From a virus: DNA of 64,000 nt. Shown one piece after another: positions 3,990-63,831 of this stretch. The stretch spans positions 57,683 to 121,682 of IMG/VR virus record IMGVR_UViG_3300022555_002641; one strand, written 5' to 3'. A program made the position numbers and the translations under genes. Positions within the stretch are counted from its first letter, which is position 1. Each line of letters starts with the position of its first letter. The notes beneath the pieces were generated by a model that was not told the DNA's origin, made no database searches, and saw only the letters and a list, made by a program, of their open reading frames with translations.

Positions 3990-5936
3990 TTAAATTTGTA
4001 TTTTTAATTGAACTGATATATCTCCGCCAGCCATCGTATTTCCAACTTGATCTACATCTATTGATAAAATATCCCCTTCTACAAGTGAAGTTGTATCAAA
4101 ATTTGATTGAGTTCCATAAGTTTGCCCACTTAAAATTTTTAATCTATTGGATTGTGTAATATTCCATATACTCACACCATTTATATTTATATCAAAAATA
4201 TCGTCCGTTCCTTGTGGGCCAGTTCCAGAACTAACATATGCTTTCAATATTGTTCCTATATACGGAACTATTACTCTTGTTTTATTAGTTCCAGTTGTTA
4301 GTGCTGTACCTACTGCTAATAAAAACGTAATATTAGATATACCTAAACCTGAACTACCTGAAGTTCCTGATGATCCAGAATTACCATCTATCCCAGATGT
4401 TCCTGAAGACCCTGATGACCCAGAATTACCATCTATCCCAGATGTTCCTGAAGACCCAGATGTTCCTGAAGACCCAGATGTACCATCGATTCCTGATGTT
4501 CCTGAAGACCCTGATGACCCAGAATTACCATCTATCCCAGATGTTCCTGAAGACCCAGATGTTCCTGAAGACCCAGATGTACCATCGATTCCTGATGTTC
4601 CTGAACTTCCAGATGATCCTGATATACCGTCAATTCCTGAACTTCCCGAACTTCCTGATCCTCCATCAGTCCCAGAACTTCCAGAACTTCCTGAACTTCC
4701 TGTTCCTCCATCAGTTCCAGAACTTCCTGAGCTCCCTGAACTTCCTGACCCATCAGTCCCAGAACTACCTGAACTTCCTGAGCTTCCTGTTCCACCATCA
4801 ACCCCAGAACTACCTGATGTGCCATCAGTTCCTGAACTGCCTGATGAACCTGAACTACCGTCAACACCTGATGAACCTGAACTACCAGAACTTCCTGAAC
4901 TACCAGAACTTCCTGATGTGCCATCAGTTCCTGAACTGCCTGATGATCCTGAACTACCTGAAATTCCAGCACTTCCTGATGTGCCATCAGTTCCTGAACT
5001 GCCTGATGAACCTGAACTACCTGAAATTCCAGAACTACCTGATGTGCCATCAGTTCCTGAACTGCCTGATGATCCTGAACTACCTGAAATTCCAGAACTA
5101 CCTGATGTGCCATCAGTTCCTGAACTGCCTGATGAACCTGAACTACCAGAACTTCCTGATCCATCTGTCCCTGAGCTTCCTGAACTACCTGATGACCCAT
5201 CGGTTCCAGAACTACCTGATGATCCTGAAGAACCAGCTCCACCATCAGCACCAGAAGAACCAGAAGAACCAGAACTACCTGAAGACCCAGTTCCGCCATC
5301 GGTACCCGAAGAACCAGAACTACCTGATGAACCAGTTCTACCATCAGTGCCTGATGACCCAGATGACCCTGAAGAACCATCTGTACCTGATATTCCAGAA
5401 GAACCTGATGTACCATCACTACCCGATACTCCTGAAGACCCAGATGTACCATCACTCCCTGATATTCCTGATGACCCAGATGTACCATCACTACCTGAGC
5501 TTCCATCAACACCAGATGTTCCTGAAGTTCCAAAATTTGCGCCATCAACCCCTGAAGAACCTGACGTACCAGAAGTTCCAGAAGTGCTTGTCTTTCCACT
5601 ATAATTCCAATCTTTATCGGGGGAAAACAGAATTGTTGTTGCCCCACTTGTTATAATACCTGTAGTAATTGTATATTTACCAATACCCAAACCAATAGCA
5701 ACGGCAGTATAATCAGCATCAGTATTTGGAGTTCGACCACCTTGAGTGTTTCCAGTATAATCAAAAGTAAAATAAATTGAAGTCCTTCCAGACACATATC
5801 CAGTAATTGGATTCCCATCAGAATCTTGAATTAAGATAGCATTATTGGTTCCAAAAGAATTTGTAAAATAAATCCAATATTTAGATTGCTGATCATTAGC
5901 AAGATAATTGTTAAATAATATATTACCAGTAGACAT
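3990..5936 (-). CDS. Gly-Ser/Thr collagen-like (G-X-Y) repeat virion fibre protein
   Basis: About 410 aa of GSS/GTS/GTD triplets between globular N- and C-terminal domains; ATG at 5936. Confidence 0.75.
   Translation of the reverse strand: MSTGNILFNNYLANDQQSKYWIYFTNSFGTNNAILIQDSDGNPITGYVSGRTSIYFTFDYTGNTQGGRTPNTDADYTAVAIGLGIGKYTITTGIITSGATTILFSPDKDWNYSGKTSTSGTSGTSGSSGVDGANFGTSGTSGVDGSSGSDGTSGSSGISGSDGTSGSSGVSGSDGTSGSSGISGTDGSSGSSGSSGTDGRTGSSGSSGSSGTDGGTGSSGSSGSSGSSGADGGAGSSGSSGSSGTDGSSGSSGSSGTDGSGSSGSSGSSGSSGTDGTSGSSGISGSSGSSGSSGTDGTSGSSGISGSSGSSGSSGTDGTSGSAGISGSSGSSGSSGTDGTSGSSGSSGSSGSSGSSGVDGSSGSSGSSGTDGTSGSSGVDGGTGSSGSSGSSGTDGSGSSGSSGSSGTDGGTGSSGSSGSSGTDGGSGSSGSSGIDGISGSSGSSGTSGIDGTSGSSGTSGSSGTSGIDGNSGSSGSSGTSGIDGTSGSSGTSGSSGTSGIDGNSGSSGSSGTSGIDGNSGSSGTSGSSGLGISNITFLLAVGTALTTGTNKTRVIVPYIGTILKAYVSSGTGPQGTDDIFDININGVSIWNITQSNRLKILSGQTYGTQSNFDTTSLVEGDILSIDVDQVGNTMAGGDISVQLKIQI
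4345..5590 (-). repeat. Coding tandem 9-bp-unit repeat (G-X-Y triplets)
   Basis: Repeated cctgaacta/ccagatgtt/cctgatgat-type units on the + strand. Confidence 0.9.
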
Positions 5937-6054
5937 CAAAAAAGTCGTTTTTTCAATGACTATATATAATTTACTAACAGTCAGAATTTAATTGGTTGGT
6001 AAAAAAAATTTTTGATGGAAAATATTAATATATACTAAAAAATAATATCATCGT

Positions 6055-56368: not shown

Positions 56369-57086
56369 ATCTTTGTTTATAAGCGATCTTCATCTTGGTA
56401 ATCCAAATTCTCAAGCTGATAAAGTCTTGAGTACACTTAAAGAATATGAATTTGAAAATTTATTCATAGTTGGGGATTTTATAGATATGACATACTTAAA
56501 ACGAAAATTCTATTGGCATAAAGATCATTCAACTATTATTCAAAAAATACTCAGGCTCTCCAGAAAAGGTGTAAACGTTTTTTATATCATCGGCAACCAT
56601 GACGCTTATATTAGAAGTATAATTGAAGATCAAAATCTAAATGTTGGCGATATTATTATATGTAATGAATATGTTTATCAATCAATAAAAGGTGAAAAAA
56701 TTTACATTACTCACGGTGATCAATTTGATGGCTTTATTATTATACATCCATTCCTATACTGGATTGGTGATAGTGCATATGAATTATCAATAAAAATAAA
56801 TAAACTATACAATTTTTTCAGAAGAATATTCAGATATGATTATTGGAGTCTTTCACAATATCTTAAAACTAAAGTAAAAAACGCAATCCAGTTTATTAAC
56901 GAATATGAGAAGTGGGCTGACATAAAAATTAAAGAAATGAAATGTGATTCCATTTTAATGGGGCATACCCATGTCGCCAAAATTATAGACGGCAAATATT
57001 ATAATACTGGTGATTTTGTGGAAAGCTGTAGTTATATCATAGAAACAATTGATGGAGAAATGATATTAAAATTCTGCGAAGTTTAA
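56358..57086 (+). CDS. Metallophosphoesterase (LpxH/UDP-2,3-diacylglucosamine hydrolase-like)
   Basis: SDLHLG, GDFID, GNHD, HGD, GHTH, NTGD. Confidence 0.88.
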   Translation: MKIKSLFISDLHLGNPNSQADKVLSTLKEYEFENLFIVGDFIDMTYLKRKFYWHKDHSTIIQKILRLSRKGVNVFYIIGNHDAYIRSIIEDQNLNVGDIIICNEYVYQSIKGEKIYITHGDQFDGFIIIHPFLYWIGDSAYELSIKINKLYNFFRRIFRYDYWSLSQYLKTKVKNAIQFINEYEKWADIKIKEMKCDSILMGHTHVAKIIDGKYYNTGDFVESCSYIIETIDGEMILKFCEV

Positions 57087-57088
57087 TG

Positions 57089-58624
57089 TTATTTCATTTC
57101 CGAACATGTGATCGGTGCTATAGGTTCTATGGCACCGATTATTGCTTTATAGCCATCCTTCCAAATTTCAGGATCAGTAGTTCTTGAAATTGCATTAAAA
57201 GTTTCCATAGCCGCAGCTACAATTGTATTAAACTTATAAGTCCTTTCGTAAACATCAATAGTCTTCTTCCTGATCATGTCAATTCTATTTCTTGCCCAAT
57301 CTTCATCCTTCTGATTAGGAACATGAACTATATCACCGATTTTCTGATAGCCAGCTTTGAATTTATTTATAAATCTACTGCAACCAGATATATTTGAATC
57401 GATCCATTCGAAATCCTGTTCAGGTGGGCCAGCAAACATGATGTACATTCTCACAACATCTGCACCATATTTTTCAACCATCTCATCAGGTGACACCCCA
57501 TTACCAAAATTCTTGGACATTTTTCTACCATCCTTCTTCACCATGCCCTGACAAATTACACGTTTAAACGGCTCGACTGGAGCATCCTCAGGAATATATC
57601 CCATTTTTTTGAACATTCTCCAGAAAAATCTTGCGTAAATCATGTGCCCTGTTGCATGCTCAGCACCGCCAATGTAATAATCAATCGGGAACCAATGTTT
57701 TATTTTATCCCAATCAAATCTGGTACCATCGAAATCTGAAATGTAACGAATGAAATACCAACTGGATTGTACAAAAGTATCCATGGTATCGGTTTCCTTT
57801 TCAGCATTTCCACCACAAACTGGGCACTTAATAAACTTCCATGTTGGATGATTCGCCATTGGATTTCCGCATCCATCGAATTTAACGTTTTCAGGGGCTA
57901 TAACGGGGGTTTGCTCGTTGGGTATGCAACCGCACCTTGGACAGTTGATCATCGGTATAGGAGTCCCCCAATAGCGTTGACGTGAAATACACCAGTCTGA
58001 GAATGGACGCACTTCATCTTTTTCACGAATTCCATTTTTTATGAACTGTTTTTGCTGCTTTGTGATTACTTCAGCCCAGTCACCTTCAATATCTTTTATG
58101 GAGTCATACATATCATCAGCAAACATTGTAGTTTTGAAATAATATTGCACCATTTCTTTCTGCTCAATCTTTGCACCAGATCGCCATCCTTTACCATCAA
58201 TTACTTGATTGGCTGCCATCACGGTCTGATCTACGGGGTCCCAATTCACCATCCCGATCTTCTTCTCAATAAATCCAGCTTTCCAAGCATCAATAAAAAA
58301 TCTTTGCTCATGCTGCCAGTAACTTACATCACAAGTCGAAATTTCACGATCCCAATCAAAATCCATAGCCATAGCTTTCATTTGTGTTCGCATATGGGCG
58401 ATGTTGGCATTTGTCCAATCCCTTGGATGAACATTGTTCTTGATCGCTGCGTTTTCCCCAGGCATGCCGTATGAATCCCAGCCTATTGGGTGGCATACAT
58501 CAAATCCTTTATTTCGCCAGTATCTGGAAATTGAGTCCGATATGGTGTAATTCCGCATGTGCCCCATGTGAATACTTCCAGATGGGTAAGGAGCCATTGG
58601 TGTCACCATTACATTGTTTTTCAT
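57089..58624 (-). CDS. leuS: Minimal leucyl-tRNA synthetase (no CP1 editing domain, no C-terminal domain, zero Leu residues)
   Basis: MAPYPSG, HMGH, GWDSYGMPGENAA, DWCISRQRYWG, ETDTMDTFVQSSWY, GGAEHA..H..YARF, KMSK. Confidence 0.92.
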   Translation of the reverse strand: MKNNVMVTPMAPYPSGSIHMGHMRNYTISDSISRYWRNKGFDVCHPIGWDSYGMPGENAAIKNNVHPRDWTNANIAHMRTQMKAMAMDFDWDREISTCDVSYWQHEQRFFIDAWKAGFIEKKIGMVNWDPVDQTVMAANQVIDGKGWRSGAKIEQKEMVQYYFKTTMFADDMYDSIKDIEGDWAEVITKQQKQFIKNGIREKDEVRPFSDWCISRQRYWGTPIPMINCPRCGCIPNEQTPVIAPENVKFDGCGNPMANHPTWKFIKCPVCGGNAEKETDTMDTFVQSSWYFIRYISDFDGTRFDWDKIKHWFPIDYYIGGAEHATGHMIYARFFWRMFKKMGYIPEDAPVEPFKRVICQGMVKKDGRKMSKNFGNGVSPDEMVEKYGADVVRMYIMFAGPPEQDFEWIDSNISGCSRFINKFKAGYQKIGDIVHVPNQKDEDWARNRIDMIRKKTIDVYERTYKFNTIVAAAMETFNAISRTTDPEIWKDGYKAIIGAIEPIAPITCSEMK

Positions 58625-58646
58625 AACTATCTATTTTTTAAGTTAG

Positions 58647-58719
58647 TAGCCTCGGTGGGATTCGAACCCACGAAATTATGGTCCTAAGCCATACGGATAT
58701 ACCACTCTCCTACGAAGCC
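58647..58719 (-). tRNA. tRNA-Leu(UAG), short variable loop (type I)
   Basis: GGCTTCG/CGAGGCT-A73; anticodon arm TATGG CTTAGGA CCATA; variable ATTTC; T arm GTGGG TTCGAAT CCCAC. Confidence 0.88.
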
Positions 58720-58732
58720 ATTTTTCATATCG

Positions 58733-58817
58733 TGCCCAAGACAGAACTCGAATCTGCATGCTCTTTCAAGCACAACGGTCTGAACGTTGCGGGTCTAACC
58801 AATTTCCCCACTTGGGC
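58733..58817 (-). tRNA. tRNA-Leu(CAG), long variable arm
   Basis: GCCCAAG/CTTGGGC-A; CAACG TTCAGAC CGTTG; variable stem TGCTT GAAA GAGCA. Confidence 0.9.
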
Positions 58818-59559
58818 GTTGTTTTTTTGGCGGAATACCGCCATAACTTTTGATCCATTTTTTTATTGCGTTATCACTAACACCATATTTCTTGCCAGTT
58901 GATAAGTAACTTGTATCATTTACTTCTTTTAAAAGTATTTCCAATGATGGTCTATCTTTAATTTTTCTTTGATTTATTTTATCACATTCATAACATCTAT
59001 TTGATTTTTTTTGAATTTCTTTGCCGCATTCACAAAAGTTATTTTTTGATTTAATATATTTAGTATATTTTTTCTTTCGTAACTCAGATATGCTACTTTT
59101 TATTTTAGAATTGCAATACGTTACAGTTTGACTATGGCAATTTGGACATAAAATTTTCAAATTGGTTATTCTATTGTCTAAATTATCACCATTAATATGA
59201 TCTAAATGTAAAGTTAATGGTTTTCCATTCCATTCATGTATTCCACAATTTTCGCATATATTTTTTTTTAAATTTTTTTCTATTAATTTTCTTCTTAAGC
59301 CTGAGGTGTTTGAATATGTAGAATTCTTTACTAAAATTTCATCAAGATTACATTTTCTCCCAAAATTTTTAAATCTCTTTCCACAATTCCAACCTTGACC
59401 TGTAAAATGTGAAATATCTATTTCATATAATTTAATATATTTCTTTACAGTTTTATAATTTCCACCAATTGGTCTTACATTTAATTTTCTACAAACGTCA
59501 GCTATTGACAACGATGTTTTAGTTATTTCTTCTAAATTGCTTTTCTCATAATTTTTCAT
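58795..59559 (-). CDS. HNH homing endonuclease inserted in the tRNA cluster
   Basis: CENCG...LHLDHINGD..DNRITNL.ILCPNCHSQT; C-terminal HTH-like; stop lies inside tRNA-Leu(CAG). Confidence 0.9.
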   Translation of the reverse strand: MKNYEKSNLEEITKTSLSIADVCRKLNVRPIGGNYKTVKKYIKLYEIDISHFTGQGWNCGKRFKNFGRKCNLDEILVKNSTYSNTSGLRRKLIEKNLKKNICENCGIHEWNGKPLTLHLDHINGDNLDNRITNLKILCPNCHSQTVTYCNSKIKSSISELRKKKYTKYIKSKNNFCECGKEIQKKSNRCYECDKINQRKIKDRPSLEILLKEVNDTSYLSTGKKYGVSDNAIKKWIKSYGGIPPKKQRPSGEIG

Positions 59560-59633
59560 ATTAAACTTTTTTTTGTATATATAAAAGTTTAATAGTCGAA
59601 AAAATAAATTTCAAGCAACTCTTAAAATTTTTG

Positions 59634-59718
59634 TGGTCGAGGAGGGAGTCGAACCCTCATGGCTCTTAACCAACAGGCTCTCAACCTGTTGCGTTCTTAC
59701 CAATTTCGCCACTCGACC
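59634..59718 (-). tRNA. tRNA-Leu(GAG), long variable arm
   Basis: GGTCGAG/CTCGACC-A; ACAGG TTGAGAG CCTGT; T arm GAGGG TTCGACT CCCTC. Confidence 0.9.
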
Positions 59719-59728
59719 TTTTTATTTG

Positions 59729-59802
59729 TACTCCCACACGGACTCGAACCGAGATATAATCTGTTTAAGAGATTAATGACTAACCAATTGCATCATGGGA
59801 GC
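59729..59802 (-). tRNA. tRNA-Leu(UAA), short variable loop (type I)
   Basis: GCTCCCA/TGGGAGT-A; AATCT CTTAAAC AGATT; variable ATAT; T arm CTCGG TTCGAGT CCGTG (one mismatch). Confidence 0.82.
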
Positions 59803-59810
59803 AATTTTTG

Positions 59811-59892
59811 TGCCGCTGAACGGACTCGAACCGATACATCTTCCGATATGAGTTTCTTAGGCTCACGTGGCTACCAATTACACCACAGCGGC
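59811..59892 (-). tRNA. tRNA-Leu(AAG), long variable arm
   Basis: GCCGCTG/CAGCGGC-A; TGAGC CTAAGAA ACTCA (C31.A39 mismatch); variable TATC GGAA GATG. Confidence 0.82.
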
Positions 59893-59898
59893 AATTTG

Positions 59899-59970
59899 TA
59901 CTCTCACTCAGACTCGAACTGAGACACCATCCTTTTGAGGGATGTACGACTACCATTACGTCATGAGAGC
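59899..59970 (-). tRNA. tRNA-Leu(CAA), short variable loop (type I)
   Basis: GCTCTCA/TGAGAGT-A; CATCC CTCAAAA GGATG; variable GTGT; T arm CTCAG TTCGAGT CTGAG. Confidence 0.88.
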
Positions 59971-59978
59971 AAAAAATG

Positions 59979-60064
59979 TAGCGAGTGTGGGGGTCGAACC
60001 CACAAGAGCACAGAGGCTCACGGACTTTTAAGGACCGCATGTTTGCCAGTTTCATCAACTCGCC
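59979..60064 (-). tRNA. tRNA-Leu(UAA), long variable arm
   Basis: GGCGAGT/ACTCGCT-A; CGGTC CTTAAAA GTCCG; variable GAGC...GCTC; T arm GTGGG TTCGACC CCCAC. Confidence 0.88.
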
Positions 60065-60092
60065 ATTTTTAAATATTTCAAAGAACACAAAC

Positions 60093-60125
60093 AAAAAACC
60101 CCCAGTCTTTCGACTGGGGGTTTTT
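60093..60125 (-). terminator. Attenuator terminator of the Leu operon
   Basis: Minus strand AAAAACCCCCAGTC-GAAA-GACTGGGGGTTTTTT, 28 nt upstream of the first tRNA. Confidence 0.9.
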
Positions 60126-60150
60126 CATGATAGGGTTAAAGGTAACCACT

Positions 60151-60240
60151 TTAACACATCTGTATAACTCTCCCAGTCCTGTTGCTTTGTAACAATAGGT
60201 TGTTGAGGAGAAGTACCAGTGTATTAATGTTGTTTTTCAT
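60151..60240 (-). CDS. Leu-sensing leader peptide MKNNINTLVLLLNNLLLQSNRTGRVIQMC
   Basis: Leu codons CTG,CTT,CTC,CTC,CTA,TTG,TTA (all six) in codons 8-17; GACTGGG (60178-60172) is complementary to the terminator 5-prime arm. Confidence 0.88.
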   Translation of the reverse strand: MKNNINTLVLLLNNLLLQSNRTGRVIQMC

Positions 60241-60245
60241 AATGC

Positions 60246-60273
60246 TATATATTAATATTTTTTATCAAAGTTT
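60246..60273 (-). promoter_or_regulatory. Putative phage promoter of the Leu operon (AAACTTT...AATATATA)
   Basis: Same motifs recur upstream of other genes in the window; ends 5 nt before the leader ATG. Confidence 0.55.
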
Positions 60274-60297
60274 GCTATTTTTGAAAATTTATTTTAA

Positions 60298-60438
60298 TTA
60301 TTTAAAAAAAGTTACATAAGCAGTGAATAAAGTTCCAGCTACCAGTACGGTTGCTAATATTATTACAGCCCACATACTTAACAAAGTATCTCTATCACCT
60401 TTCCAAAAATAATCATACTTTGCAATAAATTTATTCAT
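60298..60438 (-). CDS. 46-aa single-TM protein (not in ORF track)
   Basis: MNKFIAKYDYFWKGDRDTLLSMWAVIILATVLVAGTLFTAYVTFFK. Confidence 0.55.
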   Translation of the reverse strand: MNKFIAKYDYFWKGDRDTLLSMWAVIILATVLVAGTLFTAYVTFFK

Positions 60439-60457
60439 ATTTTTATTTTTAAAAAAT

Positions 60458-60559
60458 CCCCGTTGTGCTTAGCCCTCAACTGCGATTAACCCATACAGCA
60501 TGGTTTCGGTATAAGGCGAATCTATTTCAAGATTCCTGTGAGCTTTTAGCACTTCGGGT
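60458..60559 (-). ncRNA. Candidate structured RNA / 5-prime leader
   Basis: Closing helices CCCG/CGGG and GTGCT/AGCAC, inner hairpins GAATCT/AGATTC and TTATAC/GTATGG; TATATTTG box at 60581-60588. Confidence 0.45.
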
Positions 60560-60611
60560 AACTTTCATTCATTTGAACTGCAAATATACAACTATTTTTT
60601 AAATAAAAAAA

Positions 60612-61136
60612 TTATTTACCAAAATTTTTCTTATTGGTTAAATTCTTCAAATTTAATTTTTCATTGGCTGGCGGTGGTGGAGGTGGTGGTGGGACTTCTG
60701 TTGAAGCCGCTGCGGGGGCTGCTGGTGCTGGAGCTGCTGGTGCTGGAGTTGCTGGTGCCTGAGTTGCGCCTGATTGTGGTGCGGGAGATGCTGGTGCCAT
60801 AGGAGTTCCATCAGCATTGACTTTTGGTAATGGGGCCTGAATAGTATTTGGGTTGGGGGTTGCCAATGATGCAATATCTTGAGGTAAAAATGAGGTTGTG
60901 GACGGTACAGCCTTACAATAATTAATTAATTCGTTTTTAAATTCCTCATTTTTCAATAAATCACCAATTGTTATCATTGGACATTTATCAGCACTTGCGA
61001 TAAAACTTTCACTACCAATTTTATCAATTGTTTCAAAAAACTGTCCACCAAGTGCGATATCATCATTTGTAACCACTCCATTGTATCGCTCACTATGATA
61101 GTTAATATAAATTCTTGCTTTATCAAGATTTGTCAT
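60612..61136 (-). CDS. Hypothetical protein with Pro/Ala-rich C-terminus
   Basis: ATGA-coupled start at 61136. Confidence 0.65.
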   Translation of the reverse strand: MTNLDKARIYINYHSERYNGVVTNDDIALGGQFFETIDKIGSESFIASADKCPMITIGDLLKNEEFKNELINYCKAVPSTTSFLPQDIASLATPNPNTIQAPLPKVNADGTPMAPASPAPQSGATQAPATPAPAAPAPAAPAAASTEVPPPPPPPPANEKLNLKNLTNKKNFGK

Positions 61137-61898: not shown

Positions 61899-62102
61899 TC
61901 ATGATTTAAATATTTTGTTTAATTTATTTTTTCGTTCTTCTTTTAATTTTTCACACCACGGTGGGGCGGGGGATTTTTTGGTTCGTAATGCATAAGTTCC
62001 AACAAATTTTTCTCTACAATATAATTCAAATGTCCAGTCGCCATTTGGAGTAATCCGTTCACTCGGTACCCAACTATGCAATTTACATTTTTCGCAATCC
62101 AT
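61899..62102 (-). CDS. Small Cys-rich protein
   Basis: CxxC...C...PPWC; tag ERKNKLNKI. Confidence 0.65.
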   Translation of the reverse strand: MDCEKCKLHSWVPSERITPNGDWTFELYCREKFVGTYALRTKKSPAPPWCEKLKEERKNKLNKIFKS

Positions 62103-63654
62103 TGATTCTTGTATATTGTTGTAATCGTGAAACAAATTCATCCCTACCAATAATTTCTGCGATATCAGTTACGTGCGGCCCTCGATTGGCTCCAACTACA
62201 AGTAATCTCAATGGTGCCAATAACCTACCAGACTGCATATTAGCAGTGGCAAGAAAATTATCGATAAAAGATTGTAGTGATTCTTTATTGAATTCTTTCA
62301 ATGTTGTAAGTTGACTCAAAAACAAACTGATTACAAACCCACTATCCATCTTCCAAATTTTATCGATCATTTCTTGTTCATATGTTTGTGGAGAAAAGAA
62401 GAAGAAATCAGATTCTTTCCATAAGTCTGGTAGCAGTACAACTCTTTCACGAATAAGATGAACTATTTTCAAAAGGAATTCATTTTCATCAGTTGGTGAA
62501 TTGAAAGGTGTAAGAGTATTAATAGCCATCCCATGTTCGCCAATACATCCATGATCGCCTAATTGCCCAGATAAATAATAAGCTAATTCCTCATCGGTTT
62601 TATTAAGAAGATGTTTTTGATTAAACCATAACGCTTTCTTTGGATCGAATCGGCAATCAGCCTTAACAATACGATCTAATGAGAAAATATCGATAAGTTC
62701 TTGCATGGTGTATAATTCCTGAGTTGTTCCAGAATTCCATCCAAGCAGCGCAAGTGTATTAACTACAGCTTCTGGAAGATATCCTCGTTCTGAGCAACCC
62801 AAATATTTTTCACCAGTTTGCGGATCAATCCATGGGAGCATGTACGCTGGGAATCCAAATTTTTCACCATCCCTTTTATTGAATTTCCCCTGACCTTCGG
62901 GTTTAAGAATCAATGGAAGATGTGCGAAAACAGGATGTTCCCACCCCATAAGTTTATAAAGTAAAATATGAATTGGGGTTGATGGTAACCATTCATTTCC
63001 ACGTATTACATGAGAAATTTGCATCAAATGATCATCAACAATATTTGCAAAATGATATGTTGGAAACCCGTCAGATTTATATAGGATTTTATCGTCCAAC
63101 GTTGAAGAATTCCATGATACTTCCCCTGCGATTTCATCAGTGAATGTAATTATTTCATTTTCTGGAACTTTAAGACGAAATACACAATCGGCACCACTTT
63201 CAATAAGTTTATCAACTTCTTTTTGAGATAATGTCAAACTGTTTTTGAATTGCATTCGGTTGGCTGCCGAATATTTGAAATGCTCATTTTCTTCACGAAG
63301 CTTAGCTAATTCTTTTGGGGTATCGAATGCAATATAAGCACCACCCTTCTTATAGAGTTCCAAGATATTACTTGTGTACCAAACGCCTCGTTCCGATTGC
63401 CTGTACGGCCCGTATGCACCCTTACCGATAGCAGGGCTTTCATCAAATTTTATTCCAACCCAATTCAAAGAATCGATTATATATTTTTCGGCATTAGGCA
63501 CCAATCTTTCCTGATCAGTATCTTCAATTCTCAAAATGATATCACCACCATTCTTTTTAGCAAAAAGGTAGTTGAACAGGGCTGTTCTAACTCCACCAAT
63601 GTGAAGCGGTCCTGTTGGGCTTGGGGCGAATCTTACTCGTACTTTATTAATCAT
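62083..63654 (-). CDS. gltX: Glutamyl-tRNA synthetase
   Basis: VRVRFAPSPTGPLHIGG, RIEDTD, GPYRQSER, PTYHFANIVDDH, HVIRG.EW, KFNKR (KMSKS-like). Confidence 0.96.
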   Translation of the reverse strand: MINKVRVRFAPSPTGPLHIGGVRTALFNYLFAKKNGGDIILRIEDTDQERLVPNAEKYIIDSLNWVGIKFDESPAIGKGAYGPYRQSERGVWYTSNILELYKKGGAYIAFDTPKELAKLREENEHFKYSAANRMQFKNSLTLSQKEVDKLIESGADCVFRLKVPENEIITFTDEIAGEVSWNSSTLDDKILYKSDGFPTYHFANIVDDHLMQISHVIRGNEWLPSTPIHILLYKLMGWEHPVFAHLPLILKPEGQGKFNKRDGEKFGFPAYMLPWIDPQTGEKYLGCSERGYLPEAVVNTLALLGWNSGTTQELYTMQELIDIFSLDRIVKADCRFDPKKALWFNQKHLLNKTDEELAYYLSGQLGDHGCIGEHGMAINTLTPFNSPTDENEFLLKIVHLIRERVVLLPDLWKESDFFFFSPQTYEQEMIDKIWKMDSGFVISLFLSQLTTLKEFNKESLQSFIDNFLATANMQSGRLLAPLRLLVVGANRGPHVTDIAEIIGRDEFVSRLQQYTRINGLRKM

Positions 63655-63693
63655 CTTCTCCAACACTTGAAAAAATTACTATTCCACCCATAA

Positions 63694-63831
63694 TTAAGGC
63701 TGCTCCAGCGGCATCGTGGGCTGCGGATGTCCAATTTCGTACATGATAGTGCCTTGAATAAAAAATCCGATAATGAGTGTAATAACACAGAGAACGGCAA
63801 AATATGCCAATTTGATAAAAAGTTTGTTCAT
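63694..63831 (-). CDS. Small membrane protein (possible T-run frameshift; the alternative frame ends at the gltX start)
   Basis: MNKLFIKLAYFAVLCVITLIIGFF... Confidence 0.45.
   Translation of the reverse strand: MNKLFIKLAYFAVLCVITLIIGFFIQGTIMYEIGHPQPTMPLEQP

Follow-up and report, generated by a model that had tools for sequence, protein, structure and literature searches.

Leader-peptide attenuation is a textbook mechanism by which amino-acid biosynthesis, and in one case a synthetase operon, is controlled. In the enterobacterial leu leader, leuL, a short open reading frame (ORF) with clustered leucine codons is followed by alternative RNA pairings (regions 1:2, 2:3 and 3:4) and an intrinsic terminator, which is read through when Leu-tRNA is scarce. 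Here we describe a locus of the same layout in the right-hand 64 kb (hereafter the window; 64,000 nucleotides, positions 57,683 to 121,682) of the 121.7-kb IMG/VR virus record IMGVR_UViG_3300022555_002641, which derives from a giant lake-water phage. Window positions are used throughout, and whole-record coordinates (G000) are obtained by adding 57682. The element lies on the minus strand ahead of seven tRNA-Leu genes and a leucyl-tRNA synthetase (LeuRS) gene. From its sequence and modelled folds, it is very likely to be a ribosome-mediated (leader-peptide) transcription attenuator that reports the decoding speed of leucine codons and gates the leucine-decoding module of the phage, which would probably make its tRNA-Leu and LeuRS only when leucine codons are read slowly.

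Several described systems share part of this arrangement. Whereas leuL controls bacterial leucine biosynthesis genes and contains four leucine codons of two kinds (CUA three times and CUC), the leader in the window is encoded by a phage, precedes tRNA-Leu genes and LeuRS, and contains seven leucine codons of six kinds. In the pheST attenuator of E. coli, a synthetase operon is placed under a leader peptide (pheM) rich in cognate codons; unlike the window, that system concerns phenylalanine, is chromosomal, and has neither tRNA genes in the unit nor a cognate-free enzyme. Multivalent attenuators, such as the ilvGMEDA and thr leaders, sample several codon kinds with one leader, so that a shortage of any of them opens the operon, but they sample several amino acids whereas the leader in the window samples the synonymous codons of one. 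T-box riboswitches also use a codon-like specifier to sense whether a given tRNA is charged, and they choose between terminator and antiterminator ahead of synthetases; there the tRNA binds the RNA directly without translation, whereas the sensor in the window is an ORF. No match to the Rfam Leu_leader family (RF00512) was found at E ≤ 1 in 57000-61000, and no Rfam match to the T-box at E ≤ 1. The only leader-type matches were weak ones, to PyrR (E = 0.91) and to Thr_leader (E = 0.38, on the wrong strand). The element is thus not a sequence member of any described family, yet it is predicted to work like the leu, his and trp leaders, with the same 1:2 / 2:3 / 3:4 logic.

The leader ORF (MKNNINTLVLLLNNLLLQSNRTGRVIQMC; 29 codons plus TAA) was read directly at 60240..60151 on the minus strand. 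The initial annotation had described it, leaving the strand unstated, as sampling all six leucine codons, and this is what we found: the leucine codons are, in order, CTG, CTT, CTC, CTC, CTA, TTG and TTA, i.e., seven codons covering six kinds and confined to codons 8-17 (CTG GTA CTT CTC CTC AAC AAC CTA TTG TTA; 60190..60219, minus strand). Leucine makes up 24% of the leader versus 8.6% of the residues in long ORFs. Among 1056 ATG-initiated ORFs of 12-45 codons in the 121.7-kb record only two contain all six leucine codons, the second being an out-of-frame shadow within the glutamyl-tRNA synthetase (GluRS) gene. Leucine codon usage in the genome is uneven (TTA 34%, CTT 23%, CTG 17%, TTG 15%, CTA 7%, CTC 4%), and the probability of drawing all six kinds in seven draws is 0.014 under this usage and 0.054 under uniform usage. 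The initial annotation had also remarked that the leader and LeuRS start alike (MKNNI and MKNNV). Both starts are present in the window, but the likeness is not kept in relatives (MNNIL/MKKKM in L001 and MNNIL/MKMKK in L005); since it is unconserved and MKN-type starts are common among ORFs of the window, we give it no weight.

Thirty bases past the leader stop lies an intrinsic terminator of the form AAAAA-CCCCCAGTC-GAAA-GACTGGGGG-TTTTTT. Its 5′ arm (region 3, CCCCCAGTC) occupies 60112..60120 and its 3′ arm (region 4, GACTGGGGG) 60099..60107, with T6 after it at 60098..60093. With its A/T extension the computed hairpin has 17 pairs (7 G-C) and, followed by T6, is placed at 60128..60091, the sole minus-strand terminator-like site within 56900-60600. 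The same site scores on the plus strand too because an A-run flanks one side and a T-run the other, though no plus-strand gene enters it. The heptamer GACTGGG within the leader (60178..60172, codons 21-23) had been pointed out as identical to part of the terminator 3′ arm and therefore able to sequester CCCAGUC of the 5′ arm, and the exact 7-nucleotide copy was confirmed. A copy of the 3′ arm of at least 7 nucleotides within 140 nucleotides upstream was present at one of the 29 strand-specific perfect-stem terminators in the record, namely that of the leader. The most stable duplex that the leader makes with the 5′ arm (2:3) has an energy of -12.8 kcal/mol, which 35 of 1000 dinucleotide shuffles reach and which is modest evidence if taken alone; the core 3:4 duplex of the terminator has an energy of -18.7 kcal/mol.

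Folding without the terminator gave a long hairpin in which region 1, the leucine-codon segment, pairs with region 2 (GGGAGAG...UGUGUUAA), at -28.6 kcal/mol (z = -3.2, matched by none of 200 shuffles). Region 1 is the 5′ strand of this hairpin and carries the first four leucine codons (60204..60227, in both minimum free energy and centroid folds), while region 2 (GACUGGGAGAG...; 60151..60178, with the GACTGGG core at 60172-60178) can pair with region 1 or alternatively with region 3. A small hairpin, GGUUA-CCUU-UAACC, folds between the stop codon and the terminator (60134..60147). We then modelled folds of the transcript starting at the AUG and ending at the terminator loop, i.e., before the 3′ arm exists, with 28 nucleotides masked as the ribosome. 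With the A site on each of the seven leucine codons, the 5′ arm pairs with GACUGGGAGAG (2:3). The modelled leading edge of a ribosome stalled at the last leucine codon is at nucleotide 61, and region 2 begins at nucleotide 63. If no ribosome is present, region 2 pairs with region 1 and leaves the 5′ arm unpaired. A ribosome at the stop codon leaves GACUGGG sequestered by region 1 and a small inner hairpin, and the 5′ arm is only weakly stray-paired with part of region 1 (6 nucleotides, -15.3 kcal/mol in all). Folding with the ribosome masked, a check suggested with the original prediction of a switch, therefore came out as that prediction expects: all seven leucine stalls give 2:3, and both the no-ribosome and stop states keep GACUGGG sequestered.

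The locus thus has a short ORF before a terminator, a cluster of cognate codons, an intrinsic terminator, a mutually exclusive antiterminator and, in the model, the stall geometry of an attenuator. We propose that transcription would start shortly before the leader AUG, at a box of the TATATA type, and that a ribosome would translate the 29-codon leader while RNA polymerase proceeds. Were any Leu-tRNA(Leu) species scarce, the ribosome would stall within codons 8-17, covering region 1 and leaving GACUGGG free. The free region 2 would, by the modelled geometry, pair with the emerging CCCAGUC of the 5′ arm, so that no terminator forms, and the polymerase would be expected to read into the seven tRNA-Leu genes, past an endonuclease ORF and into LeuRS. 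When leucine is decoded fast, the ribosome would reach the stop codon, region 1 would take region 2 and the terminator would form, ending transcription 28 nucleotides before the first tRNA; an untranslated leader would be predicted to terminate as well.

To place the element among its relatives we collected every reachable locus with a LeuRS of 63-81% identity (L001, L005-L012 and L031; n = 10). One further locus, L050, was found through a DNA pattern and not through LeuRS, which it lacks. A leucine-rich short ORF with a terminator precedes the tRNA-Leu array or LeuRS in all ten relative LeuRS loci. Array-type leaders, i.e., those before tRNA-Leu genes, represent five lineages: the window, L001/L008 (common peptide MNNILHINLLNSLCLLGIKLIG), L005 (MNNILHNNLLNLLLLLGIIGLGVLC), L007/L012 (first leader MNTTTLNTNLSLRSLLLREGSGFVLFERCDSK, before a mixed Leu/Arg array) and L050 (MNNILHTNLLNLLDLLGYNWIG). 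Six leaders stand directly before LeuRS, namely those of L006, L009, L010, L031 and L011 and the second leader of L007/L012 (MKTKNTLLLLLKE). The L011 leader (MNTKTMNDNKFSLLLGSR) and its terminator were identified by reading the sequence. No tRNA genes were found by ARAGORN in the L006, L009, L010, L031 and L011 loci. The leader peptides range from 13 to 32 amino acids and have little in common beyond the leucine run. Two attenuators stand in series in L007 (4850-5000 and 5789-5900) and in L012 (3843-4000 and 4789-4897). There the first leader has seven leucine codons and two AGA codons before an array of tRNA-Leu and tRNA-Arg(TCT, CCT), and the second has five consecutive leucine codons, TTA, CTA, CTA, CTA and CTC.

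A strict automatic finder (perfect stems, at least four leucine codons in ten) recovered true leaders in five of the ten close loci (L001, L005, L007, L008 and L012). The leaders of L006, L009, L010, L011 and L031 were found by reading because they have a stem mismatch or fewer leucine codons; the finder's match in L031 was an unrelated ORF and was discarded. In 29 distant loci with cellular-type LeuRS the finder gave a single match (L032, 1.5 kb upstream). Among 18 perfect-stem terminators in seven relative loci, a copy of at least 7 nucleotides was present only at the leucine leaders of L001, L005 and L008. The Ile/Cys/Asp/Asn/Tyr arrays of L001 and L005 have no such copy device of at least 7 nucleotides by the perfect-stem filter.

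The pairing itself is kept while the sequences change. Regions 2, 3 and 4 are GACUGGG, CCCAGUC and GACUGGG in the window; UGAUUGGGU, ACCCAAUCA and UGAUUGGGU in L001; GAUUGGGU, ACCCAAUC and GAUUGGGU in L005 and L050; and UCGGG (core), CCCGA and UCGGG in L012a. From the window to L001 a C-G pair becomes U-A in antiterminator and terminator alike. In the group with leaders directly before LeuRS, a constant GUGCUGAG pairs with CUCGGUAC in L009 and L010 or with CUCAGUGC in L031, and the pairing is kept through swaps of G-U and Watson-Crick pairs. The three regions thus change together between lineages, as had been anticipated for a genuine antiterminator. The duplex between leader and 5′ arm was significant in eight of nine leaders tested, its energy being reached by 35, 0, 2, 30, 3, 0, 3 and 4 of 1000 shuffles (0-4 in L001, L005, L006, L009, L010 and L031, and 30 in L012a). 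Masked folds gave stall-dependent antitermination in L001, L005, L012a, L006, L009, L010, L031 and L050. In L001, L005, L050 and the leaders directly before LeuRS, the stop codon lies in or beside region 2, so that a terminating ribosome would cover region 2. The initial annotation's terminator/antiterminator switch read by a ribosome is thereby supported in silico by geometry, by conservation in ten of ten loci and by co-variation.

A promoter-like TATATA box lies 5 nucleotides before the leader ATG (60246..60251, minus strand, by direct reading). In nine of ten leaders a TATATA, TATATT or TATAAA box ends 5-8 nucleotides before the ATG, and the exception follows a tRNA. The exact TATATA box is rarer in the record than expected from composition (115 versus about 188); 36 of 160 long ORFs have one in the 60 nucleotides ahead of them, in most cases 16-27 nucleotides before the ATG. 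TATATA is likely a promoter element of the phage, and from the position of the box the leader message is inferred to be leaderless or nearly so. There is no TATATA box in the 28 nucleotides between the T-run and the first tRNA. A sigma-70 scan returned 19 sites versus 14.3 expected; one of these, at the leader (60268..60239), was discarded since its start would fall inside the ORF. No Shine-Dalgarno sequence was seen at any gene read in the window, the leader included, which fits a Bacteroidota-type host: in the accessible text of PMC9723704, Bacteroidetes are described as not using Shine-Dalgarno sequences, and a flavobacterium as having clues of leader-peptide attenuation before amino-acid operons.

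Several observations weigh against an attenuator of this kind. In the window, the antiterminator has a core of just 7 bp, weaker than the terminator core (-12.8 versus -18.7 kcal/mol) and equalled by 35 of 1000 shuffles. In equilibrium folds of the full leader and terminator with ribosome masks the terminator always wins, so the switch model needs kinetic control. A ribosome at the stop codon leaves region 2 uncovered in the window, and termination would therefore rest on the 1:2 pairing. Among the relatives, 2:3 persists in the masked fold of L012a even when the ribosome has reached the stop codon, and the antiterminator of L012b is not significant (equalled by 964 of 1000 shuffles). The leader lacks a Shine-Dalgarno sequence, and the TATATA box only 5 nucleotides upstream implies a leaderless or near-leaderless message; the accessible text of PMC9723704 puts leaderless mRNAs at only 5.5% in Flavobacterium psychrophilum. 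Finally, a separate TATATA box stands before the endonuclease ORF inside the array, so transcription of LeuRS and of the two tRNAs nearest to it may also bypass the switch.

The initial annotation had gone further and read the spread over all six codons as surveillance of individual isoacceptors. We put at about even the chance that six codons matched by six anticodons let the switch react when any one isoacceptor runs short. The complete set is present in three of the five array-type lineages (the window, L001/L008 and L050), and the sensing window of L001 contains exactly one of each leucine codon (P = 0.004-0.015). CTT comes second among the leucine codons of L001 but fourth in L050, and CTA opens the series in L001 and L050 yet comes fourth in L005; as positions shift between lineages in this way, the set seems to be kept while its members turn over. 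The probability that at least three of five lineages are complete is 1e-4 under genome usage and 5e-3 under uniform usage if lineages are independent, values that are too small because the L001, L005 and L050 leaders are homologous. Nor is the set universal, with five kinds in L005 (no CTT) and three in L012a, and a taste for rare codons is a known attenuator trait. In L005, the GAG tRNA would read both CTC and CTT. Leaders directly before LeuRS have 3-4 leucine kinds in all and 2-3 at stall-effective codons, chiefly TTA and the rare CTA and CTC. The idea of isoacceptor-level surveillance is thus supported in part, by the complete lineages with their positional turnover and by the smaller codon sets of the LeuRS-only leaders, and not by L005 or L012a.

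A possible but rather doubtful alternative is that the element is a leucine attenuator in which the six-codon spread has no sensing role, having arisen through drift or a preference for the rare codons CTA and CTC, so that overall Leu-tRNA or leucine supply is reported. It is favoured by the enrichment of CTA and CTC (7% and 4% of leucine codons) in every leader, those of tRNA-less loci included, as well as by the gaps in L005 and L012a, the shared ancestry of L001, L005 and L050 and the probability of 0.054 under uniform usage. Drift or rare-codon preference sits less easily with three of five array lineages being complete even as CTT and CTA shift position among L001, L050 and L005, or with L001 having one codon of each kind when the LeuRS-only leaders have just 3-4 kinds. 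The anticodon set points the same way: the six anticodons, which include both AAG and GAG, exceed wobble needs.

A switch that works without translation, in which uncharged tRNA, LeuRS or another factor would bind the leader RNA in a T-box-like or autoregulatory manner, appears very improbable. Alternative hairpins do exist here, and T-box control, or binding of the enzyme to its own message, is established for many synthetases. However, no T-box or other cis-regulatory Rfam match reaches the gathering score, and the conserved features (an ATG, in-frame leucine codons and a stop codon at, just before or just after region 2) are readable only by a ribosome.

The hairpin might instead be a plain intrinsic terminator of the upstream unit, which includes a 46-aa ORF at 60438..60298, with the short ORF and the 7-nucleotide copy present by chance. 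It is a normal strong hairpin with A- and T-runs that scores on the plus strand too; short ORFs are plentiful in AT-rich DNA (1056 of 12-45 codons in this record), and 35 of 1000 shuffles reach the duplex energy. Against chance, ORF, terminator and complementary strand recur in ten of ten LeuRS relatives and in L050, in divergent sequences with co-varying arms; such a copy accompanies only one of the record's 29 terminators, and a promoter-like box stands 5-8 nucleotides before nine of ten leader ATGs. This explanation is already disfavoured, and we hold it to be slightly less probable than a translation-independent switch. Least probable of all is that the ORF encodes a small hydrophobic peptide with its own function (e.g., a membrane peptide) beside a coincidental terminator, for although the ORF is leucine-rich and hydrophobic and the 46-aa ORF just upstream looks membrane-like by eye, the peptides of 13-32 amino acids share little but a leucine run, and conservation is instead seen in the RNA pairing and in where the stop codon falls with respect to region 2.

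The genes that the attenuator would control all lie on the minus strand. The array begins 28 nucleotides past the T-run with a tRNA-Leu (TAA) that has a long variable arm (59978..60064; ARAGORN, Rfam tRNA 45.5 bits) and continues, as annotated by ARAGORN and Rfam, with tRNA-Leu (CAA) in a short form of 73 nucleotides (59898..59970), tRNA-Leu (AAG) (59810..59892), a second tRNA-Leu (TAA) in a short form of 75 nucleotides (59728..59802) and tRNA-Leu (GAG) (59633..59718). An HNH-type homing-endonuclease-like ORF of 254 aa (58795..59559), recognised by nucleotide similarity to annotated phage HNH genes, lies inside the array and is followed by tRNA-Leu (CAG) (58732..58817) and tRNA-Leu (TAG), a short form of 74 nucleotides (58646..58719). 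LeuRS (57089..58624; Pfam tRNA-synt_1, 7e-44) begins 21 nucleotides past the last tRNA and encodes 511 aa with no leucine. All seven tRNAs are tRNA-Leu, with Rfam tRNA scores of 45-62 bits, and they are the sole tRNA genes of the whole 121.7-kb record. Read in order, the anticodons are TAA, CAA, AAG, TAA, GAG, then after the HNH-like ORF CAG and TAG; the six different anticodons exactly complement the six kinds of codon in the leader. Three of the genes (TAG, TAA and CAA) are just 73-75 nucleotides long and therefore lack the long variable arm usual for tRNA-Leu. tRNA-Leu (TAA) is present in both a long and a short form, and L001, L005 and L050 likewise mix long and short forms.

The HNH-like ORF has its own TATATA box, 16 nucleotides before the ATG, and no Pfam match at E ≤ 0.001. 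Its end overlaps tRNA-Leu(CAG) by 23 nucleotides. At the matching array position L001 has a different ORF of 256 aa (5201-5971), which by eye looks like a GIY-YIG endonuclease. Downstream of the terminator, and ahead of the first tRNA called by ARAGORN, L001 (4498-4582), L005 (about 5450-5570) and L050 (about 610-710) contain a tRNA-like element whose acceptor stem looks not intact; that of L001 scores 38.5 bits with Rfam tRNA and was missed by ARAGORN. A conserved AGATTGCTTACAGCAAA precedes this element in all three loci. A search with AGATTGCTTACAGCAAA as a pattern gave 23 stretches, of which two (L049 and L050) are relatives and one (L068) is near other tRNAs; the other 20 were set aside as unrelated DNA with higher GC content and no tRNAs.

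Lack of leucine in the synthetase extends well beyond the window. Across 11 loci (the window and ten relatives) LeuRS contains 0-3 leucines. Of the 47 best database matches (57-98% identity, 351-647 aa), 41 have no leucine and six have one or two; three of the 47 are longer forms with an editing domain (645-647 aa) and are also within the 0-3 range. LeuRS matches of cellular length have 52-78 leucines. The leucine-free state is a clade trait of the short LeuRS. A search for PF00133 in the records of three relatives returned LeuRS only, with no Ile, Val or Met synthetase. Low cognate bias, the avoidance of an amino acid by proteins needed when it is in short supply, is described in the accessible text of PMC4209129; compared with that, avoidance in the LeuRS of the window is total (0/511), occurs in a synthetase and is paired with a probable leucine attenuator.

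The 121.7-kb record has a GC content of 32% and is estimated to be 17% complete. Among GenBank phages, a tblastn search found close LeuRS only in LR756501.1 and LR756503.1. The LeuRS of the window shares 75% identity at the DNA level and 81.5% at the protein level with its counterpart in LR756501.1, which the accessible text of PMC7162821 lists as a 735-kb 'huge phage', with Bacteroidetes hosts predicted for genomes of that size. Comparison of contigs of four DNA runs with 59950-60450 gave either identical sequence or unrelated short terminator matches, and no variants. In the window itself, the GluRS gene (62083-63666, minus strand) has no comparable leader, the sole short ORF upstream of it in the ORF list (63831..63694, 45 aa) not being rich in glutamate.

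The mechanism is thus textbook, and its use on phage tRNA genes is one for which we found no account in the literature. Full-text literature searches, which did not cover supplements, returned no leader-peptide attenuator before tRNA genes or in a virus. The words 'attenuat', 'leader' and 'leucyl' have no occurrence in the main text of PMC7162821, whose tRNA and synthetase lists are in supplements that were not covered. Particular to the present locus are the array for a single amino acid, the six-to-six match between codons and anticodons, and the cognate-free synthetase.

As it contains no leucine, LeuRS could be made when Leu-tRNA is lacking, and the module could therefore restart leucine decoding and then shut itself off. 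We tentatively suggest, at somewhat below an even chance, that the whole is a self-starting rescue module for leucine decoding: a six-codon leader would check the isoacceptors separately, and any shortage would open a six-anticodon set, including short type-I-like tRNA-Leu, together with a leucine-free LeuRS. Such a module might be used to survive or exploit the loss of host Leu-tRNA, e.g., through host anticodon nucleases or phage-driven destruction of host tRNAs, and might run a private tRNA-Leu/LeuRS pair. With six codons set against six anticodons, a leucine-free enzyme, and natural variants with and without arrays, the locus offers an unusually clean test system. If the attenuator reading is true, it is a natural compact sensor of tRNA charging at the level of isoacceptors, and it offers a testable account of the reason for, and the timing of, tRNA array and synthetase expression in phages: large phages would gauge how fast individual codons are decoded and produce tRNAs as needed.

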